Shown here piece by piece: positions 1 through 5,247 of a DNA stretch of 5,247 nucleotides; the first letter of the stretch is position 1, and each line of letters starts with the position of its first letter. A program made the position numbers and the translations under genes. The notes beneath the pieces are model-generated. The model worked only from the letters and a program-made list of their open reading frames with translations, had not been told where the DNA came from and ran no database searches. Source of the stretch: Xenococcaceae cyanobacterium MO_167.B52 (lineage in GTDB: Bacteria > Cyanobacteriota > Cyanobacteriia > Cyanobacteriales > Xenococcaceae). The stretch is taken from contig JASJDB010000440.1 of the NCBI GenBank assembly GCA_030065315.1, positions 1 to 5,247 on the forward strand, given 5' to 3'.

Positions 1-1347
1 AGGCTGACTAACGATCCTTTTTCTCCTCCAGAACTAGAAGTAAGAGCGAAAACAGCAGAATTTGAGTACATATCACCTTTAGTCAGTAAATTAACCACCA
101 CCAAATCTCGTCTAGTTTTTGAGGATCGCTTATCTCTACCATTAATCAGAAACTCTTTAGTATTTGATGGTCGTCCCCGTCGCCCAGGAATATTTAACAT
201 TGGTTTTGATGGAGAGGACAGGGGTGGTTTATATCTAGAAAGAACTTGGGGTCTAATTGGGCGAGAAAACATTACTTGGACGATTACTCCTCAATACTTT
301 CTTCAAAGAGCCATAAGTCCTACTACCTTTGATTTTAGTGCAGAAGATGAGGGAGGAATATTTGACTCTTCTGTCTTTGGTTTAAAAAGTGATTTTAATA
401 CTATATTTTCATCACGAACAGATTTAAGAGCTAAAATTAGCATTACTAGCTTTGATGTTAATGAATTAGAAGATAATATCCGCGCCAAACTAACAGCTAC
501 TCAGTTAATTGGTAACATCAATAGTCCTCATCAAGCTAGTTTAGAATACAATTTCCGCGAACGCTTATTTAATGGTTCTTTAGGATTTCAGACCCTATAT
601 AGTAGTATTGGCACTGTGATCACTTCTCCTGATATTAGATTAGGAAAAACAGGAATCGGTCTCAAATATCAAGGCTCAATTCAAAACATTAATTCGGAAA
701 CAGATGATCCCGAATTATTAAGCAGCGATCGCAACAATGACCGCATCAATTTAACTCGTTTTCAAGCAGCAATGTTTTTAGGTAAAAGCTTTCCGATCTG
801 GCAAGGTAAACCTCTTCCTCCGACCCAAGATCAAGGCTTACGCTATACTCCTAGACCTGTAGTGCCTTACCTCCAATTCAATACTGGTGTTTCGGGGGTT
901 ACTAGTTTTTATAGTAATGGAGATACGCAAAATTCCTTACGTGGAACTGTAGGAATTCAAGCACAATTGGGTCATTTTGGTCGTTCTTTTTTCGATTACA
1001 CAGGATTTAATGCGACTTATTCCATAGGAACAAATTTCGATGAATCTCCCTTTCTCTTTGATCGAGATGTTGATCGACAAACTCTAGCTTTAGGAATTAC
1101 CCAACAATTATATGGTCCAATTAGATTAGGGGCGCAAACTTCTTTCAATCTTGACGATGGAGATGATATTAGCACTGATTATGTGTTGCAGTATAGTCGC
1201 CGTACCTATAATGTTTCTTTACGCTATAATCCTGTCCTAAAAATTGGCTCTTTTAGTTTTCAGGTTAATGATTTTAATTGGCGTGGAGATCCTCAACCTT
1301 TTGAAAGTAATGATATTAGACCAGTTATTCAAGGAGTAGGTCGTTAA
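1..1347 (+). CDS. C-terminal ~448 codons of a large outer-membrane beta-barrel-like protein; best guess is the cyanobacterial LptD-like / DUF3769 family; 5' end lies outside the window
   Basis: Hand translation of frame 1 from nt 1 gives RLTNDPFSPPELEVRAKTAEFEYISPLVSKLTTTKSRLVFEDRLSLPLIRNSLVFDGRPRRPGIFNIGFDGEDRGGLYLERTWGLIGRENITWTITPQYFLQRAIS... with no stop until TAA 1345-1347. GTG 616 in the ORF track is therefore only the first start-like codon of an ORF that enters from the left edge. The composition is Gly/Asn/Ser/Thr/aromatic-rich, with short alternating hydrophobic-polar strands (YNVSLRYNP, IGSFSFQVNDFNW, LALGITQQLYGPIRLGAQTSFNL), as is typical of beta-barrel OMPs. The family name is recalled from cyanobacterial DUF3769/LptD-like proteins and is not search-verified. 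Confidence 0.7.
   Translation, partial: RLTNDPFSPPELEVRAKTAEFEYISPLVSKLTTTKSRLVFEDRLSLPLIRNSLVFDGRPRRPGIFNIGFDGEDRGGLYLERTWGLIGRENITWTITPQYFLQRAISPTTFDFSAEDEGGIFDSSVFGLKSDFNTIFSSRTDLRAKISITSFDVNELEDNIRAKLTATQLIGNINSPHQASLEYNFRERLFNGSLGFQTLYSSIGTVITSPDIRLGKTGIGLKYQGSIQNINSETDDPELLSSDRNNDRINLTRFQAAMFLGKSFPIWQGKPLPPTQDQGLRYTPRPVVPYLQFNTGVSGVTSFYSNGDTQNSLRGTVGIQAQLGHFGRSFFDYTGFNATYSIGTNFDESPFLFDRDVDRQTLALGITQQLYGPIRLGAQTSFNLDDGDDISTDYVLQYSRRTYNVSLRYNPVLKIGSFSFQVNDFNWRGDPQPFESNDIRPVIQGVGR
725..732. repeat. HIP1 octamer (GCGATCGC), the highly iterated palindrome of cyanobacteria; single perfect copy
   Basis: Exact GCGATCGC read at 725-732 inside the first CDS (codons ..AGC GAT CGC..). A GC-only palindromic 8-mer is unexpected by chance in about 5 kb of AT-rich DNA. 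It is used here only as a taxonomic hint. Confidence 0.6.
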
Positions 1348-1493: not shown

Positions 1494-1901
1494 ATGAGTA
1501 TAGAATTATTAGCTGCGGGAAAGCTTTTAGACATGGCTTTAGGTGGCATTGTCGGCAATGCTGCTACTGAAACTGCAAAACTATTGTGGCGAACAATCAA
1601 AAATCGCTTGTTGCAAAATCAGCCTGTGATTGAAGCAGAGATAGTTGAACTGGAACAAAATCCCACTCAGGAAAAGTTAAAGCCGTTAGAGCCTTTTCTT
1701 CAAGTGGAAATGCACAAAGATAAGCTTTTTGCCCAAGAGATTAGTAACTTAGCTAAAGAAATAGCTAAGGCTAATAGTGGAGATACTATTACTACAGGAG
1801 AAATTAAAGCCGAAGGTAATGCTGTTGCTGCTGCCAAGATAGATGCACCTAATTCCAGAATTGGCGGTTCGGATACTAATATTAATCTCCCAAAGAATTA
1901 A
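1494..1901 (+). CDS. 135-codon ORF encoding an unassigned alpha-helical module with a G/N-rich C-terminal tail; probably the N-terminal (effector-like) domain of the downstream STAND NTPase, not an independent gene
   Basis: ATG 1494 directly follows an in-frame TAA (1491-1493). The ORF stays open for 135 codons in AT-rich DNA and ends ..CTC CCA AAG AAT TAA (1899-1901). Its last 16 nt overlap the open upstream part of the NB-ARC frame. It begins MSIELLAAGKLLDMALGGIVGNAATETAKLLW (small-residue/Gly-rich amphipathic helix), continues with a charged helical segment, and ends NSGDTITTGEIKAEGNAVAAAKIDAPNSRIGGSDTNINLPKN. Confidence 0.6.
   Translation: MSIELLAAGKLLDMALGGIVGNAATETAKLLWRTIKNRLLQNQPVIEAEIVELEQNPTQEKLKPLEPFLQVEMHKDKLFAQEISNLAKEIAKANSGDTITTGEIKAEGNAVAAAKIDAPNSRIGGSDTNINLPKN
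1889..1895 (+). promoter_or_regulatory. C_CCA_AAG heptamer, a candidate -1 ribosomal frameshift site (or the site of a 1-nt homopolymer indel) joining the 135-codon ORF to the NB-ARC frame
   Basis: In the 0 frame the codons are CTC CCA AAG, so the heptamer fits X_XXY_YYZ in the correct phase (CCA->CCC, AAG->AAA). It lies inside the only 13-nt interval (1886-1898) where both frames are open. The 0-frame stop is two codons downstream. No clear stimulatory SD-like element or strong hairpin was found. Confidence 0.35.
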
Positions 1902-4663
1902 GCCCAGATGAAATAGTAGAAACTACTCTCAAACTAGAACGAGCTACATCTCAAGTTAATGCTTCTACTAATCTCAACACTATTCCACCAAATCTCGATA
2001 ACTGGGTAGAGAGAAAAGAAGAAATAGAGATTATCAAAGCCTGGCTGAATAATCCGCAAGTTAGTACTGTGGGGATTGCTCAAGCTAATACTTTGGGCGT
2101 TCAAGGCTTGGGTGGTGTAGGAAAATCTACTATAGCTGCTTATTTTTATCACTCTCTTGAGTTCGCAGCTAAATTTTGGGCAGATGTCAGCCTTAAACCT
2201 GATTTTACTGTCTTTGCTCAAAAGGTAATTCTGGCTTTGGGTGGCAACGTTACTCTACCTATTGATATTACGGATTTAATTAATAACTTACTTTATCTGC
2301 TTAGTCAGCGACGCTGTTTGTTGGTGGTGGATAATTTGGAAACTCTGCTGGATGGAGAGAGAAATTGGCAAAGCGAATATTATCACCAATTTTTTAGTCG
2401 TTGGCACCAGCAGGGAACAAATAGTACTATCTTGATAACTACTCAAGATAAACCTCAGTTATTCCAAGGTTTACAACATTGGTATGCTTTGGGAGGGATG
2501 AAGATTGAGGAAGGAATTACTTTATTAAACAAGGAAGGAATACAAGGAACAGAAGCAGAATTAAAAGCTTTTGTAGAATATATAGATGGGCATCCTTTGA
2601 CTATTAAATTAGTAGCAGGCTTTTTAAGAGAGGATTGTAATAGTCAGTTAAGTAAAGCCAGAGAAGAGTTTAAATTAGAAGAGTTTGAACTGGCTTATAA
2701 AGAAGCATCAGGATTTTACCGTAATCAACCAAAAGCACAAAATGCACTTCTTTCTTGGATTATTCAACAGCATTTGGATAGGTTAAGTGATGAACAAAAA
2801 CGATTTATAACTAATTTAAGTGTGTATCGGCTGCCTTTTAATCGCGAAGCAGCTAGTTATATGTGGATTGAGAAAGAAGTAAAACCGATAGTAATTCAGA
2901 AAAAGCTTCAAGAATTATGTAATCGCTCTTTATTAATTAAAACTCAAGATAATAAGTTTCAGTTTGAATCTTTAGTACAGAAATATGTTTTACAGCAAGC
3001 AAATGATTTAACATATGCCCATCAACAAGCTATTGAATATTATCAAGCAAACTTAAAACTAGAGAACCATTGGCGAAATTTAGCTGATATTACTGAATAT
3101 CTAGAGATTGTTAATCATTACCATAAATTAAAACTATATTCTCAAGCTAATAATATTCTCAAAATATGCTTAAGATTTATGAATTTGCAAGGATACCATC
3201 TGAGTATAGTTGAAAATTATGAAAAGTTAGTTCAAGGATGGCAAACTAAATTGCAATCACAAGAGTTATCTGATTATGCATGGGCATTAAATACATTGGG
3301 AATTCATACTCACTACTTAGGAAATAGTAATCAGAGTATAAAGTCTCTCAATTTGTCTCTAGAAATTTTTATGAAAATCAAAGATGGAATTGGATTAGTC
3401 TCATCTCTAAGTGGTTTGGGAGATGTTTATGACTCTTTAGGTAATTATCATCAAGCAATCAACAGATATCAAAAAGCCTTAGACATTTCACATCAAATAA
3501 TTAATGTTTATGAAGAAGGTGAATTTTTAGAATCTGTATCACTAAATGGTTTGGGGAATGCTTACTTTTCTTTAGGAGACTATGGAAAAGCCATAAATTT
3601 GTATCAAAAAGCTTTGGATATTTCACAAAAACTAAATTATTTAAATTTACAACCTGAATTTTTAAATAGTTTGGGGAATGCTTACTATTCTATAGGAGAA
3701 TACAAAAGGTCTCTAGAATTTCATAAAAAGGCTTTAACTCTATCGGAAATAAGTGGAGATCGCAATCAAAAGAGCTTATTTTTAAATAATTTGGGAAATA
3801 CCTATAATGCTATAGGAGAATACCAAAAAGCAATTAATTATCTTCAGGAATCTTTAAGTATTGTTCGAGAAACTGGTAATCGTAATGGAGAAGCCTTATC
3901 TTTGATGAATCTCGGTAATACATACACTTCTTTGGGAGAATATCAAAGAGCAATTAGTTATTTTGAACAATCTTTGGAAATTCAACAACATATAGAGGAC
4001 AGTAACGGAGAATCTAGTTCTTTAAATAATTTGGGCAATGTATACACTTCTTTGGGAGAATATCAAAAAGCAATTAATTGTCTTCAGGAGTCTTTAAATA
4101 TTGCCCGCCAAATCGGTAATCGTAAATTAGAAAGCTTATCTTTGAACAATATGGGTAATGCTTATTACCTACTAGAAGAACATCAGCAAGCAATGAACTT
4201 TTATCAAAAGTCTTTAGATATTGCAGAGCAAATAGGTCTCCTATATGAAAAAGCTAATTCATTAGCTAATATAGGAATTATTTATATTTCTCTAAAAGAG
4301 TATACAAAGGGAATCAATTATCTTCAAGAAGCTTTAAAAATTCAACAAAAAATAGGAAATTGTATCGGTGAAGCTAAATCTTTTGCTAATATTGGTACTG
4401 CATATCACTATCTAGAAAAATATAAACTAGCAATCAAATTCTACAAAAAAGCATTGACTATTTTTCAAAAAATAGGTGATCGCAGAGGAGAAGCTAATAC
4501 TTGGTTTAATTTAGGTGATACTCAAAAATACTTGCACCAAAACTCAGAAGCAAAATTAGCTTATGAAAATTCTAGAAAACTATATCAAGCAATGGGATTA
4601 GATAAAGATGTAGAGGACTGCAATAAGGCAATTCAAGATTTAGAAAATGACAATATAGATTAG
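1895..4663 (+). CDS. NLR-like STAND NTPase with an NB-ARC (AP-ATPase) nucleotide-binding module and a C-terminal array of 11 TPR units; it lacks its own canonical start (open frame from 1886; the ORF-track GTG 2069 is not credible)
   Basis: Pre-P-loop helix NLDNWVERKEEIEIIKAWL (about 1994-2050). Walker A GLGGVGKST (2105-2131). Walker B LLVVDN (2318-2335). RNBS-B-like ILITTQD (2429-2449). GLPL-like GHPLTIKLVAGFL (2588-2626). Winged-helix-like LSVYRLPFNREAA. MHD-position FES (2963-2971). These are followed by repeated LNxLGNxYxSLGEYQKAIxxxQxSLxIxxxIGxRxGEAxS units up to about 4620. Stop TAG 4661-4663. I checked every frame-2 codon from 1886 to 2068: none is ATG, GTG or TTG. Confidence 0.9.
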   Translation, partial: ELSPDEIVETTLKLERATSQVNASTNLNTIPPNLDNWVERKEEIEIIKAWLNNPQVSTVGIAQANTLGVQGLGGVGKSTIAAYFYHSLEFAAKFWADVSLKPDFTVFAQKVILALGGNVTLPIDITDLINNLLYLLSQRRCLLVVDNLETLLDGERNWQSEYYHQFFSRWHQQGTNSTILITTQDKPQLFQGLQHWYALGGMKIEEGITLLNKEGIQGTEAELKAFVEYIDGHPLTIKLVAGFLREDCNSQLSKAREEFKLEEFELAYKEASGFYRNQPKAQNALLSWIIQQHLDRLSDEQKRFITNLSVYRLPFNREAASYMWIEKEVKPIVIQKKLQELCNRSLLIKTQDNKFQFESLVQKYVLQQANDLTYAHQQAIEYYQANLKLENHWRNLADITEYLEIVNHYHKLKLYSQANNILKICLRFMNLQGYHLSIVENYEKLVQGWQTKLQSQELSDYAWALNTLGIHTHYLGNSNQSIKSLNLSLEIFMKIKDGIGLVSSLSGLGDVYDSLGNYHQAINRYQKALDISHQIINVYEEGEFLESVSLNGLGNAYFSLGDYGKAINLYQKALDISQKLNYLNLQPEFLNSLGNAYYSIGEYKRSLEFHKKALTLSEISGDRNQKSLFLNNLGNTYNAIGEYQKAINYLQESLSIVRETGNRNGEALSLMNLGNTYTSLGEYQRAISYFEQSLEIQQHIEDSNGESSSLNNLGNVYTSLGEYQKAINCLQESLNIARQIGNRKLESLSLNNMGNAYYLLEEHQQAMNFYQKSLDIAEQIGLLYEKANSLANIGIIYISLKEYTKGINYLQEALKIQQKIGNCIGEAKSFANIGTAYHYLEKYKLAIKFYKKALTIFQKIGDRRGEANTWFNLGDTQKYLHQNSEAKLAYENSRKLYQAMGLDKDVEDCNKAIQDLENDNID
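1991..2998 (+). other. NB-ARC-type nucleotide-binding domain region (NBD, helical domain and winged helix) of the STAND protein
   Basis: The order and spacing of P-loop, Walker B, RNBS-B-like, GLPL-like and MHD-position motifs match the APAF-1 / plant R-protein / bacterial AP-ATPase layout. Domain borders are approximate and set by eye. Confidence 0.8.
3286..4620 (+). repeat. Tandem array of 11 TPR-encoding units (ten of 120 bp / 40 aa and one of 135 bp), TPR_12/kinesin-light-chain-like
   Basis: Unit starts are at about 3286, 3406, 3541, 3661, 3781, 3901, 4021, 4141, 4261, 4381 and 4501. The conserved Gly of the LG(N) motif recurs every 40 residues (aa 411, 451, 496, 536, 576, 616, 656, 696, 736, 776, 816 of the track protein). 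Units 3781-3900 and 4021-4140 share 96/120 nt by hand count. Confidence 0.9.
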
Positions 4664-4664
4664 T

Positions 4665-4910
4665 TTAATCAAATGCTGTTTTGATATTTTGCTTACTTTT
4701 ATATTGTTTAATGCCTTGTTTTAATTCGGTCATCAATTCGCGATCTGAAATTATTTCAATAGTTTCAATTAAAGATTCAAACTGTTCTAAGCTAAAAGTA
4801 ATCATGACAGGTTTACCATCTTTTGTAATAATTGCAGGTTCATCGGTTAATTGATTTGATAGTTCGGCTAACTGTTGTTGTGCTTCGGCAATAGTCAAAT
4901 ACTTAGGCAT
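4665..4910 (-). CDS. Phd/YefM-family type II antitoxin-like protein (81 aa); no cognate toxin gene in the window
   Basis: MPKYLTIAEAQQQLAELSNQLTDEPAIITKDGKPVMITFSLEQFESLIETIEIISDRELMTELKQGI shows the characteristic Phd/YefM N-terminal pattern (hydrophobic-T/S-I-x-E-A-x...L..L, then a K-x-G-K-P-V strand and the L-E-x-x-E-x-L-x-E-T-L/I-E-I-L/I-S-D-x-E-L-M segment). ATG 4910-4908, stop TAA (complement of 4665-4667). Confidence 0.8.
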   Translation of the reverse strand: MPKYLTIAEAQQQLAELSNQLTDEPAIITKDGKPVMITFSLEQFESLIETIEIISDRELMTELKQGIKQYKSKQNIKTAFD

Positions 4911-4977: not shown

Positions 4978-5247
4978 TCAACTTACTGCATATTCTGTAT
5001 ATTTCCGTAAACGCTGAGGATGAAAAGCTAAAACAATATCAGATTTAGGGATACCTGCTGGTTCTAAATCAGTTGCAATACCATCTTCTGTACCGTCTCT
5101 TTGTATCCAGATTTTGCCATCAATAATATCTAAATGAATTAAACAACCATGTACCCTGGTATCGCCTTCCCAACCTTGAGTAATTAAGATAAACCGATTT
5201 TCGTCATTACTAACAATCAATTCTGAAGCAATATCTCCATATTTATA
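4978..5247 (-). CDS. xisI: XisI-family protein (fdxN-element excision controlling factor XisI-like); N-terminus lies beyond the right window edge
   Basis: NRFILITQGWEGDTRVHGCLIHLDIIDGKIWIQRDGTEDGIATDLEPAGIPKSDIVLAFHPQRLRKYTEYAVS carries the XisI hallmark RVHGC..H.DI.DGKIWIQ.DGTE.GIA..L...GIPK..IVL.FH. Reading the same minus frame above the track TTG (5220-5218) gives YKYGDIASE with no stop up to nt 5247, so the ORF continues outside the window. Stop TGA (complement of 4978-4980). Confidence 0.85.
   Translation of the reverse strand, partial: YKYGDIASELIVSNDENRFILITQGWEGDTRVHGCLIHLDIIDGKIWIQRDGTEDGIATDLEPAGIPKSDIVLAFHPQRLRKYTEYAVS

Follow-up and report, generated by a model that had tools for sequence, protein, structure and literature searches.

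The window analysed here is an entire contig of 5,247 nt (JASJDB010000440.1) from a metagenome-assembled genome (MAG) of a Xenococcaceae cyanobacterium. It carries two collinear open reading frames (ORFs) on the + strand that lie in different frames. The first, ORF1 (locus tag QNJ18_24470; 1494-1901), starts at ATG 1494 and encodes 135 aa, the zero-frame product, that is, a free small protein. The second lies in the -1 frame (frame 2 of the window) and is open from 1886 to TAG 4661-4663, that is, over 925 codons. Pfam found in its product an NB-ARC domain (PF00931, E=1.5e-8, 34.7 bits vs a cut-off of 23.5) and, over residues ~440-905, multiple TPR families (TPR_12, E=8e-81). The -1-frame protein is an NLR-like STAND NTPase, with NB-ARC and a TPR repeat sensor at the C-terminus, and its Walker A motif or P-loop, GLGGVGKST, was read from the translation at 2105-2131 (+). 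Comparison of this locus with its relatives pointed to programmed -1 ribosomal frameshifting at a conserved site, by which the two frames of one expression unit would be joined, a reading that we consider likely.

The 3' codons of ORF1 are AAT (1884), CTC (1887), CCA (1890), AAG (1893), AAT (1896) and the zero-frame stop TAA (1899-1901, +). They contain the slippery heptamer C_CCA_AAG in X_XXY_YYZ phase at 1889-1895 (+), the proposed site of the -1 shift, and the stop comes one codon past it. In the -1 frame, the final stop ahead of the long ORF is a TAA at 1883-1885 (+), which restricts the joining window to 1886-1898. From 1886 to 2068, frame 2 has no ATG, GTG or TTG. Hence the coding linker at 1895-2068 (+; ELSPDEIV...NLDNWVERKEEIEIIKAWLNNPQVST) is start-less, and the first canonical start of the frame is a GTG at 2069-2071 (+), the one that a gene caller would choose and probably not the true N-terminus. 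A -1 slip at the heptamer would give a product of 134 + 922 = 1056 aa (~118 kDa), whose -1-frame part (1895-4663, +) comprises the NB-ARC NTPase and the TPR sensor. The junction would read ..NINLPK/ELSPDEIV.., with NINLPKELSPDEIVETTLK as the predicted trans-frame junction peptide. An earlier note on this DNA, made from its letters alone, had described the same coordinates, frames, heptamer phase, 134 + 922 fusion and lack of a start before GTG 2069, all of which were reproduced.

We then looked at how widely this arrangement is kept. A search of a 5.8-billion-protein collection returned 98 ORF1 homologues, all 89-166 aa long, and a profile search run exhaustively over 1.84 billion cluster representatives added 120 more distant relatives, nearly all 120-160 aa long. 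DNA was retrieved for 47 loci and every junction was read. About 30 distinct loci kept the layout, in which a small ORF of ~135 aa ends near an in-phase heptamer and is followed, in the -1 frame, by a STAND NTPase gene without a start. The ORF1 stop lay 0, 1 or 5-6 codons past the heptamer in these relatives. The -1-frame ORF was 600-1185 aa long and opened just a few codons 5' of the heptamer, and no canonical start occurred in that frame within 33-254 nt past the ORF1 stop. The loci belonged to Pleurocapsales and Crocosphaera, came from MAGs as well as isolates, and spanned 30-100% ORF1 identity. Both the layout and its conservation are established.

Two of these loci bear on the quality of the window sequence itself. 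One (L015) is an independent metagenome contig with an identical ORF1, an NLR that differs at several residues, and the same CCCAAAG. The other (L039) is the culturable isolate Crocosphaera chwakensis CCY0110 (AAXW01000058), a Sanger-era genome, which keeps the layout with the junction ..NLGKGIGENDVQR... Because the layout recurs in both, an error in sequencing or an indel private to the window is effectively refuted. The coupling was moreover seen with three sensor classes, namely NB-ARC-TPR, nSTAND1 with pentapeptide repeats (L042) and nSTAND1-WD40 (L043), which argues that the coupling of ORF1 to a sensor is itself selected. In the latter two loci (L042:1938-4859 and L043:3881-7438), the small ORF and an A_AAA_AAG junction stand ahead of the nSTAND1 NTPases. 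Right past their junctions we noticed a beta-strand-like segment (..GNAILAGDGNIVIIQTS..), which might be an NLR-side motif.

An in-phase V_VVA_AAG was present in 28 loci, that is, 27 start-less junction loci and a single relative (L027) in which both parts lie in one frame. It read CCCAAAG in the window, L015 and L016, GGGAAAG in 14 loci and AAAAAAG in 11; one further locus (L044) had GGGAAAC. The dipeptide encoded at this position varied radically (P-K, G-K or K-K) while the nucleotide pattern stayed constant. Indeed, the silent third base of the codon before the heptamer was X in every case, over 11 different preceding codons (GTG, TTG, CTG and GAG before GGA; CTC and TTC before CCA; CCA, GCA, GTA, GAA and GGA before AAA). 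Background third-position frequencies in the same genes were 15% for G, 14% for C and 35% for A. Likewise, the A-site Lys codon was AAG in 26 of 26 loci, as compared with a 30% share of AAG among the Lys codons of the same genes. Base composition predicts V_VVA_AAG at 3.8e-4 per in-phase position, or ~1.5e-3 over the ~4 positions at which the frames can be joined. Elsewhere in the ORF1 and NLR ORFs, 6 in-phase occurrences in 16,651 codons matched the composition expectation of 3.8e-4. The co-variation around the junction is thereby established, and the heptamer behaves, by this comparison, as a selected slippery site would. Among the -1 heptamers measured in E. coli, the three with the highest efficiency were C_CCA_AAG, G_GGA_AAG and A_AAA_AAG (Sharma et al. 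2014, PMC4066793; PMC5009743), with values of ~0.3% alone, up to ~3.7% in the best 3' context and up to 54% with a pseudoknot (PMC4066793).

A lone heptamer in one sequence is not decisive, because the window holds another in-phase G_GGA_AAG inside ORF1; it is the comparative data that decide. This second site lies at 1517-1523 (GCG GGA AAG, codons 8-10). A slip there would stop at TGA 1568-1570 after 17 codons and could divert some ribosomes. It was found just in the window, L004 and L015 and is not conserved, and it is probably there by chance.

Past the heptamer, a linker peptide was kept across loci (S-Q-V-x-T-S-T-N-L-x-T-x-P-P-N-L-D-N-W-V-E-R-x-E-E-I ... G-x-Q-G-L-G-G-x-G-K-S). In a gapless alignment of 17 loci, variability in this region was highest at position 3 of the -1-frame codons (0.92 bits vs 0.55 and 0.47 at the other two), which establishes a coding signature for that frame. 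No near-cognate start was conserved across the loci, and no Shine-Dalgarno (SD)-like sequence was found 5' of GTG 2069. In L037, the first ATG is residue 97 of the -1 ORF and comes after Walker A, the NB-ARC domain spanning residues 68-237. In L042 and L043, the first start comes 41-42 residues into the Pfam nSTAND1 domain. Judging from these translations, a protein begun at the first canonical start of any of the three loci could not be a functional NTPase. With the absence of a usable start established as well, the comparison indicates that the -1 frame codes for protein as soon as the heptamer is passed and would depend on the ORF1 start.

One relative has the two parts in a single frame. 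On the metagenome contig JAAUYH010132212.1 (L027:1023-2384), ORF1 and NB-ARC form one ORF (..YEGKGEAQKDTQDSRSTGQANSQ..NLDNWVERKEE..). Its GGGAAAG heptamer is kept, and the frames are joined through a diverged, rebuilt linker that is 2 nt shorter, with no extra C or A. The translation of this locus indicates that a fused ORF1-NB-ARC polypeptide exists in nature.

A sub-family with the tail ..HNHNSV (L045:3861-4404 and L046:3881-3926) showed another arrangement. There, the ORF1 stop is TGA, followed by CTG or CTA and ACT, and in L045 the frame stays the same past the TGA and into the linker and P-loop of the NLR (LTDAQLERVLENAQK...GIQGLGGVGKS). This sub-family may be a stop-codon (UGA) readthrough variant of the same coupling, as read from two contigs that both end soon past the junction.

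What does ORF1 encode? An AlphaFold2 model (alignment A1) predicted five helices that form a Bell-like bundle over residues 1-94 (1494-1775, +), the N-terminal one being hydrophobic. The helices span residues 8-19, 26-42, 44-55, 60-75 and 77-94, and the predicted local distance difference test score (pLDDT) is ~90 over residues 31-90. The tail, residues 96-134 (1779-1895, +), is predicted to be disordered (pLDDT <50) and holds a conserved motif, GD.I..(10)..V..GK.(7).FGG. This motif could be aligned with the BASS-type motif of two-gene relatives, both in the Bell tail and at the NLR N-terminus of L040. The N-terminus of ORF1 is MSIELLAAGKLLDMALGGIVG, with an acidic residue at E4, and distant relatives begin MEP.., MPEP.. 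or MIDP... In the Bell/NLR architecture described in multicellular cyanobacteria, a ~100-aa helical bundle with a hydrophobic helix 1 carries a C-terminal amyloid motif common to the adjacent NLR (Dyrka et al., bioRxiv 10.1101/2020.01.06.895854), and Bell-type function has been demonstrated for E. coli Bab/Agp (bioRxiv 10.1101/2024.11.07.622273). By its AlphaFold2 model, ORF1 fits the Bell features of a ~100-aa alpha-helical bundle, a hydrophobic helix 1 and an acidic residue near the N-terminus. It also lies directly 5' of, and collinear with, a gene of NLR architecture. ORF1 had no match in Pfam, PADLOC or NCBIfam, libraries that hold no Bell hidden Markov model (HMM). A Foldseek search of the model against PDB and a profile search of PDB sequences gave nothing significant. 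HetE-N gave weak, sub-threshold matches in 3 of 56 ORF1 relatives.

Among the more distant members of the ORF1 family, the C-termini are of two classes, ..(G/K/P)-K-x tails and ..VGKIEADNVSF-type tails. The former were carried by 80 of 97 close homologues and by 74 of 101 members of a second sub-family. The latter class includes L040, a classical two-gene Bell/BASS pair, in which ORF1 ends ..DQSTVKQVGKIEADNVSF and the NLR, 740 nt downstream, has its own ATG and begins with MTQDINSDSQDNIRMDGTSREQSNVNQIGKLQANNVFIG, a repeat of the ORF1 tail motif. In the window, no copy of this motif was found in the -1 ORF past the junction (ELSPDEIVETTLK...). Because the tail motif is not repeated on its NLR, the window locus would be a variant and not a classical Bell/BASS pair. 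Past the junction, the window NLR begins with the linker that follows the NLR-side motif in L040, in a cross-junction alignment that is weak. The simplest reading is that frameshifting gives the NLR the module and the motif that two-gene systems encode twice.

Several observations weigh against these readings, starting with the search for a stimulatory element. The RNA fold downstream of the heptamer in the window was not significant (z=-0.41), and neither, for the most part, were the single-sequence folds computed in 25 loci for the 90 nt 3' of the heptamer. No conserved stimulatory RNA was found with these folds and RNAalifold. In 16 loci, RNAalifold proposed one sole invariant long-range 6-bp pairing with zero covariation, which we rejected as evidence. 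A hairpin, GCCCAGA(N24)TCTGGGC, lies 6 nt past the site in one sub-clade only, and the window is without the TCTGGGC partner. As an upstream SD-like stimulator, GGAGG was rejected too: it encodes a conserved Gly-Gly, lies 16-22 nt away, and is GGCGG in the window. Some junctions also depart from the heptamer. In L019 (711-717), L023 (4396-4402) and L047 (~3890-3905), the site reads G_GGG_GAG, with the tail LGED, two A-to-G changes having occurred together relative to G_GGA_AAG. L047 has an intact -1 ORF of 740 aa despite this sequence, with no canonical slippery site, and the Hyella locus (L012) retains just the A_AAG tetramer (GGTAAAG). No in-frame full-length fusion of ~1000 aa was found by the profile search of the 1.84 billion representative proteins, and the NLR of the one-frame relative L027 is truncated at ..PFNREAARYM*, after which the sequence is unrelated. 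Decaying loci occur as well, with stops within the NLR in L011/L032 and L013, and L001/L018 lacking the P-loop region. Finally, ORF1 is called Bell-like by predicted fold and architecture, without a profile match.

The L001 and L018 loci (L001:5381-6592 and L018:4381-5592) represent a deletion derivative, in which ORF1 ends ..HLLPY without a heptamer and the frame resumes mid-NLR (..IQGTEAELKAFVKYVDGHPL..). Three others (L003, L022 and L024) have a different tail (..GEDQGYFMLDGKIIVLN) and no NLR. Decay is frequent in the ORF1 family. A stretch of ~20 nt past the heptamer (TAAGCCCAGAnGAAAT; 1896-1915 in the window) is near-invariant at all codon positions in the window and its equivalents in 16 loci. 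The codons beyond it vary freely at position 3. This stretch may represent a signal acting in the RNA or the joint left by a recombination event.

A possibility was that the two frames are independent genes. Initiation of the NLR would then take place at GTG 2069 or else at a codon outside the canonical set (ATA 1913, an ATT or a CTG), perhaps by termination-reinitiation after TAA 1899, and the heptamer would merely reflect a conserved G/P/K-K peptide end. As a matter of fact, database gene calls all give ORF1 and the NLR as two genes, the Pfam NB-ARC match in the window (-1 ORF residues 68-268) starts after GTG 2069 (residue 62), L038 has a TTG just 33 nt past the ORF1 stop, and the Bell and NLR genes of classical pairs often overlap by a few bases (bioRxiv 10.1101/2020.01.06.895854). 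Yet such a gene would have neither a conserved near-cognate start nor an SD-like sequence ahead of GTG 2069, its first start would fall past Walker A in one locus (L037) and within nSTAND1 in two others (L042 and L043), and the 58 codons without a start show both protein-level conservation and the codon signature of the -1 frame. Moreover, a constraint on the peptide leaves unexplained why the silent base equals X and why the Lys codon is constantly AAG. We therefore regard two independent genes as unlikely. An even less credible explanation is that the locus is a pseudogene or an artefact, that is, a former 1056-aa ORF broken by a 1-nt deletion or by an error of sequencing or assembly in a homopolymer. 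The loss of one nucleotide would place the frames in just this relation, the window comes from a MAG as a short contig, and L011, L013 and L001 are indeed decaying. However, the frame relationship is found in ~30 loci from independent assemblies, including the isolate L039, with three heptamers and intact downstream ORFs of 600-1000 aa, and a continuous-ORF homologue with one extra base is absent among 98 + 240 + 120 matches. We give this explanation next to no weight.

The frame might also change at the nucleic-acid level, by RNA-polymerase slippage or by slipped-strand phase variation at the C and A runs. AAAAAAG does contain six consecutive A, and fused and unfused products would also be expected. 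Productive transcriptional slippage in bacteria nevertheless requires ~9 A or T (PMC5009743), as against CCC+AAA in the window and GGG+AAA in most loci, and the strict codon phase and the terminal G (AAG, not AAA) are relevant to slippage of the ribosome and not to that of the polymerase. This makes such a mechanism very unlikely. Another possibility is that the frameshift is real and serves a regulatory or attenuating role, NLR translation being tied to ribosome load or tRNA-Lys status, or that the free ORF1 protein inhibits the fusion. With no stimulator, efficiency could follow the physiological state; A_AAG slippage depends on tRNA-Lys (PMC5009743); and toxin-antitoxin genes flank the locus. 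On the other side, the ORF1 family includes classical Bell/BASS effector-type proteins, and no regulatory sensor is identifiable in the sequence. We find this role quite improbable. A conserved programmed -1 frameshift joining a module to its sensor is the reading that we retain. The idea of a -1 slip at C_CCA_AAG linking an N-terminal module to the NB-ARC/TPR sensor was already in the earlier note and is strongly supported by the ~30-locus comparison. The alignment of orthologues that it had put forward as a check revealed a conserved two-frame layout with an in-phase heptamer and no homologue with an extra base. Its ranking, in which an indel or error was at least as likely as programmed frameshifting, was overturned by the independent assemblies, the isolate, the three heptamers and the several NTPase classes. 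It had seen no convincing stimulator, and none was found here either. The anatomy and the slip that it described thus stood, its ranking did not, and the Bell/BASS-type family of the 135-aa module had escaped it.

The remainder of the window was also annotated. A DUF3769 gene occupies 1-1347 (+), open from base 1 (Pfam E=8.7e-99, profile positions 225-444 matched). We rejected it as a second frame disruption: the gene is just truncated by the contig start. Downstream, a Phd/YefM-type antitoxin gene lies on the opposite strand (4665-4910, -), ending 1 nt from the NLR stop, and is followed by a XisI-family gene (4978-5220, -). The flanks of related loci (L038, L039 and L041) carried HicA/HicB and HEPN/MNT toxin-antitoxin genes and, in Crocosphaera, a Pkinase-WD40 gene. 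These genomic surroundings resemble a defence island.

From these data, the following mechanism can be proposed. Most ribosomes would stop at TAA 1899 and release the free 135-aa protein, a Bell-like bundle with a disordered tail bearing the BASS-like motif. A minority would slip by -1 on C_CCA_AAG, with tRNA-Pro re-pairing from CCA to CCC in the P site and tRNA-Lys from AAG to AAA in the A site. They would read GAA next and 922 codons in all, giving a 1056-aa Bell-like-NB-ARC-TPR fusion. Because no stimulator is conserved, a low efficiency is expected, somewhere between a fraction of one percent and a few percent, in line with the lambda gpG:gpGT case discussed below. We infer that the slip does occur at such a low percentage, which would make the sensor scarce and the small protein abundant. 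By analogy with Bell/BASS-NLR systems and HET-S/NWD2, one may speculate further that the TPR repeats sense a trigger, upon which the NTPase oligomerises and the N-terminal modules cluster. The clustered modules might then recruit or template free ORF1 protein via the common tail motif, with an attack on the membrane and the death of the cell as the outcome. Frameshifting would stand in for the second motif copy that two-gene systems carry on the NLR.

A close parallel for the recoding event is found in the tail assembly chaperones of phage lambda, where a conserved -1 frameshift lies close to the 3' end of gene G. The lambda G-T site is G_GGA_AAG, and frameshifting there requires no stimulatory structure. 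In both cases, a short upstream ORF ends just past a V_VVA_AAG-type heptamer and both products would have a common interaction module, as in gpG/gpGT (PMC5009743). The low-level -1 shift of lambda yields the short product and the N-terminally coincident fusion in a ratio of 30:1 (PMC5009743). The lambda pair, however, serves viral structural assembly, whereas here the pair is chromosomal, non-mobile and of STAND/NLR type, and the predicted fusion partner is an NTPase of 922 aa. The dnaX and IS3/IS911 (insertion sequence) frameshifts likewise use X_XXA_AAG decoded by tRNA-Lys and give two N-terminally coincident products per mRNA (PMC4066793, PMC5009743). Their stimulators are defined (SD-like sequence, hairpin, pseudoknot or three-way junction) and their efficiency is high, whereas none is conserved here; in addition, the shifted product of dnaX is the shorter one. 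A likeness to retroviral Gag/Gag-Pol arises from the L045/L046 sub-family, which appears to use an in-frame UGA, as gammaretroviruses do (PMC5009743). We take this as a lead only, and the biology is different.

On the side of the proteins, the locus resembles Bell/BASS-NLR and Bab/Agp systems in its ~100-aa helical module, hydrophobic helix 1 and short C-terminal motif, placed directly 5' of an NB-ARC/TPR or NACHT/WD gene, and in its occurrence in multicellular or aggregate-forming cyanobacteria. Within the ORF1 family, L040, P0119, P0290 and P0316 are arranged as in the textbook case, and their NLRs repeat the motif at the N-terminus. In contrast, the window NLR has neither its own start nor a motif copy. 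It would obtain both only as the continuation of ORF1, and would then also carry the Bell-like domain. The order of the predicted fusion, that is, a membrane-targeting helical bundle, an NTPase and a repeat sensor, recalls all-in-one NLRs such as plant CC-NLR ZAR1, the fungal HeLo/HeLL-NLRs and Avs2 with its 'MEPIS' N-terminus. Those are single ORFs, whereas the fusion proposed here would arise by recoding in minor amounts, with the free module in excess.

In full-text searches on frameshifting together with NLR, NB-ARC, STAND, nSTAND1, Bell, antiphage systems or cyanobacteria, we found no earlier description of a recoded NLR or STAND receptor. To our knowledge, conserved -1 frameshifting in bacterial chromosomal genes that belong neither to phages nor to insertion sequences is limited to a small number of examples, among them dnaX, csoS2 and copA. 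There was no mention of a frameshift in an NLR-type receptor in the GeneTack survey (PMC3711429), the Atkins review (PMC5009743), the survey of heptamers in Enterobacteriaceae (PMC4066793) or a 2025 survey of bacterial frameshifting, and the word 'frameshift' occurs 0 times in the Bell/BASS paper (bioRxiv 10.1101/2020.01.06.895854). Programmed -1 ribosomal frameshifting at V_VVA_AAG and Bell/NLR systems are each known, and their combination, as deduced from sequence comparison, appears to be new.

A broader proposal, which we hold tentatively and with some inclination to doubt, is that a whole clade of NLR-like systems of immunity or cell death in cyanobacteria swapped the two-gene arrangement, an effector and a sensor with a shared amyloid motif, for a single message. 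A frameshift, or possibly UGA readthrough in one sub-family, would make the sensor as a rare extension of the effector and fix the ratio of the two, and the sensor-borne module would nucleate the free copies. This would be the first NLR/STAND receptor that depends on recoding, and it would join the small set of bacterial genes outside mobile elements in which a -1 frameshift is conserved. If the frameshift holds true, many cyanobacterial NLR-like genes would be mis-annotated with truncated N-termini. It would also provide a natural experiment on Bell/BASS-type signalling, in which the motif is common via frameshifting in some systems and duplicated on two genes in others. For the cell, a stoichiometry of scarce sensor to abundant death effector would be fixed without separate promoters.

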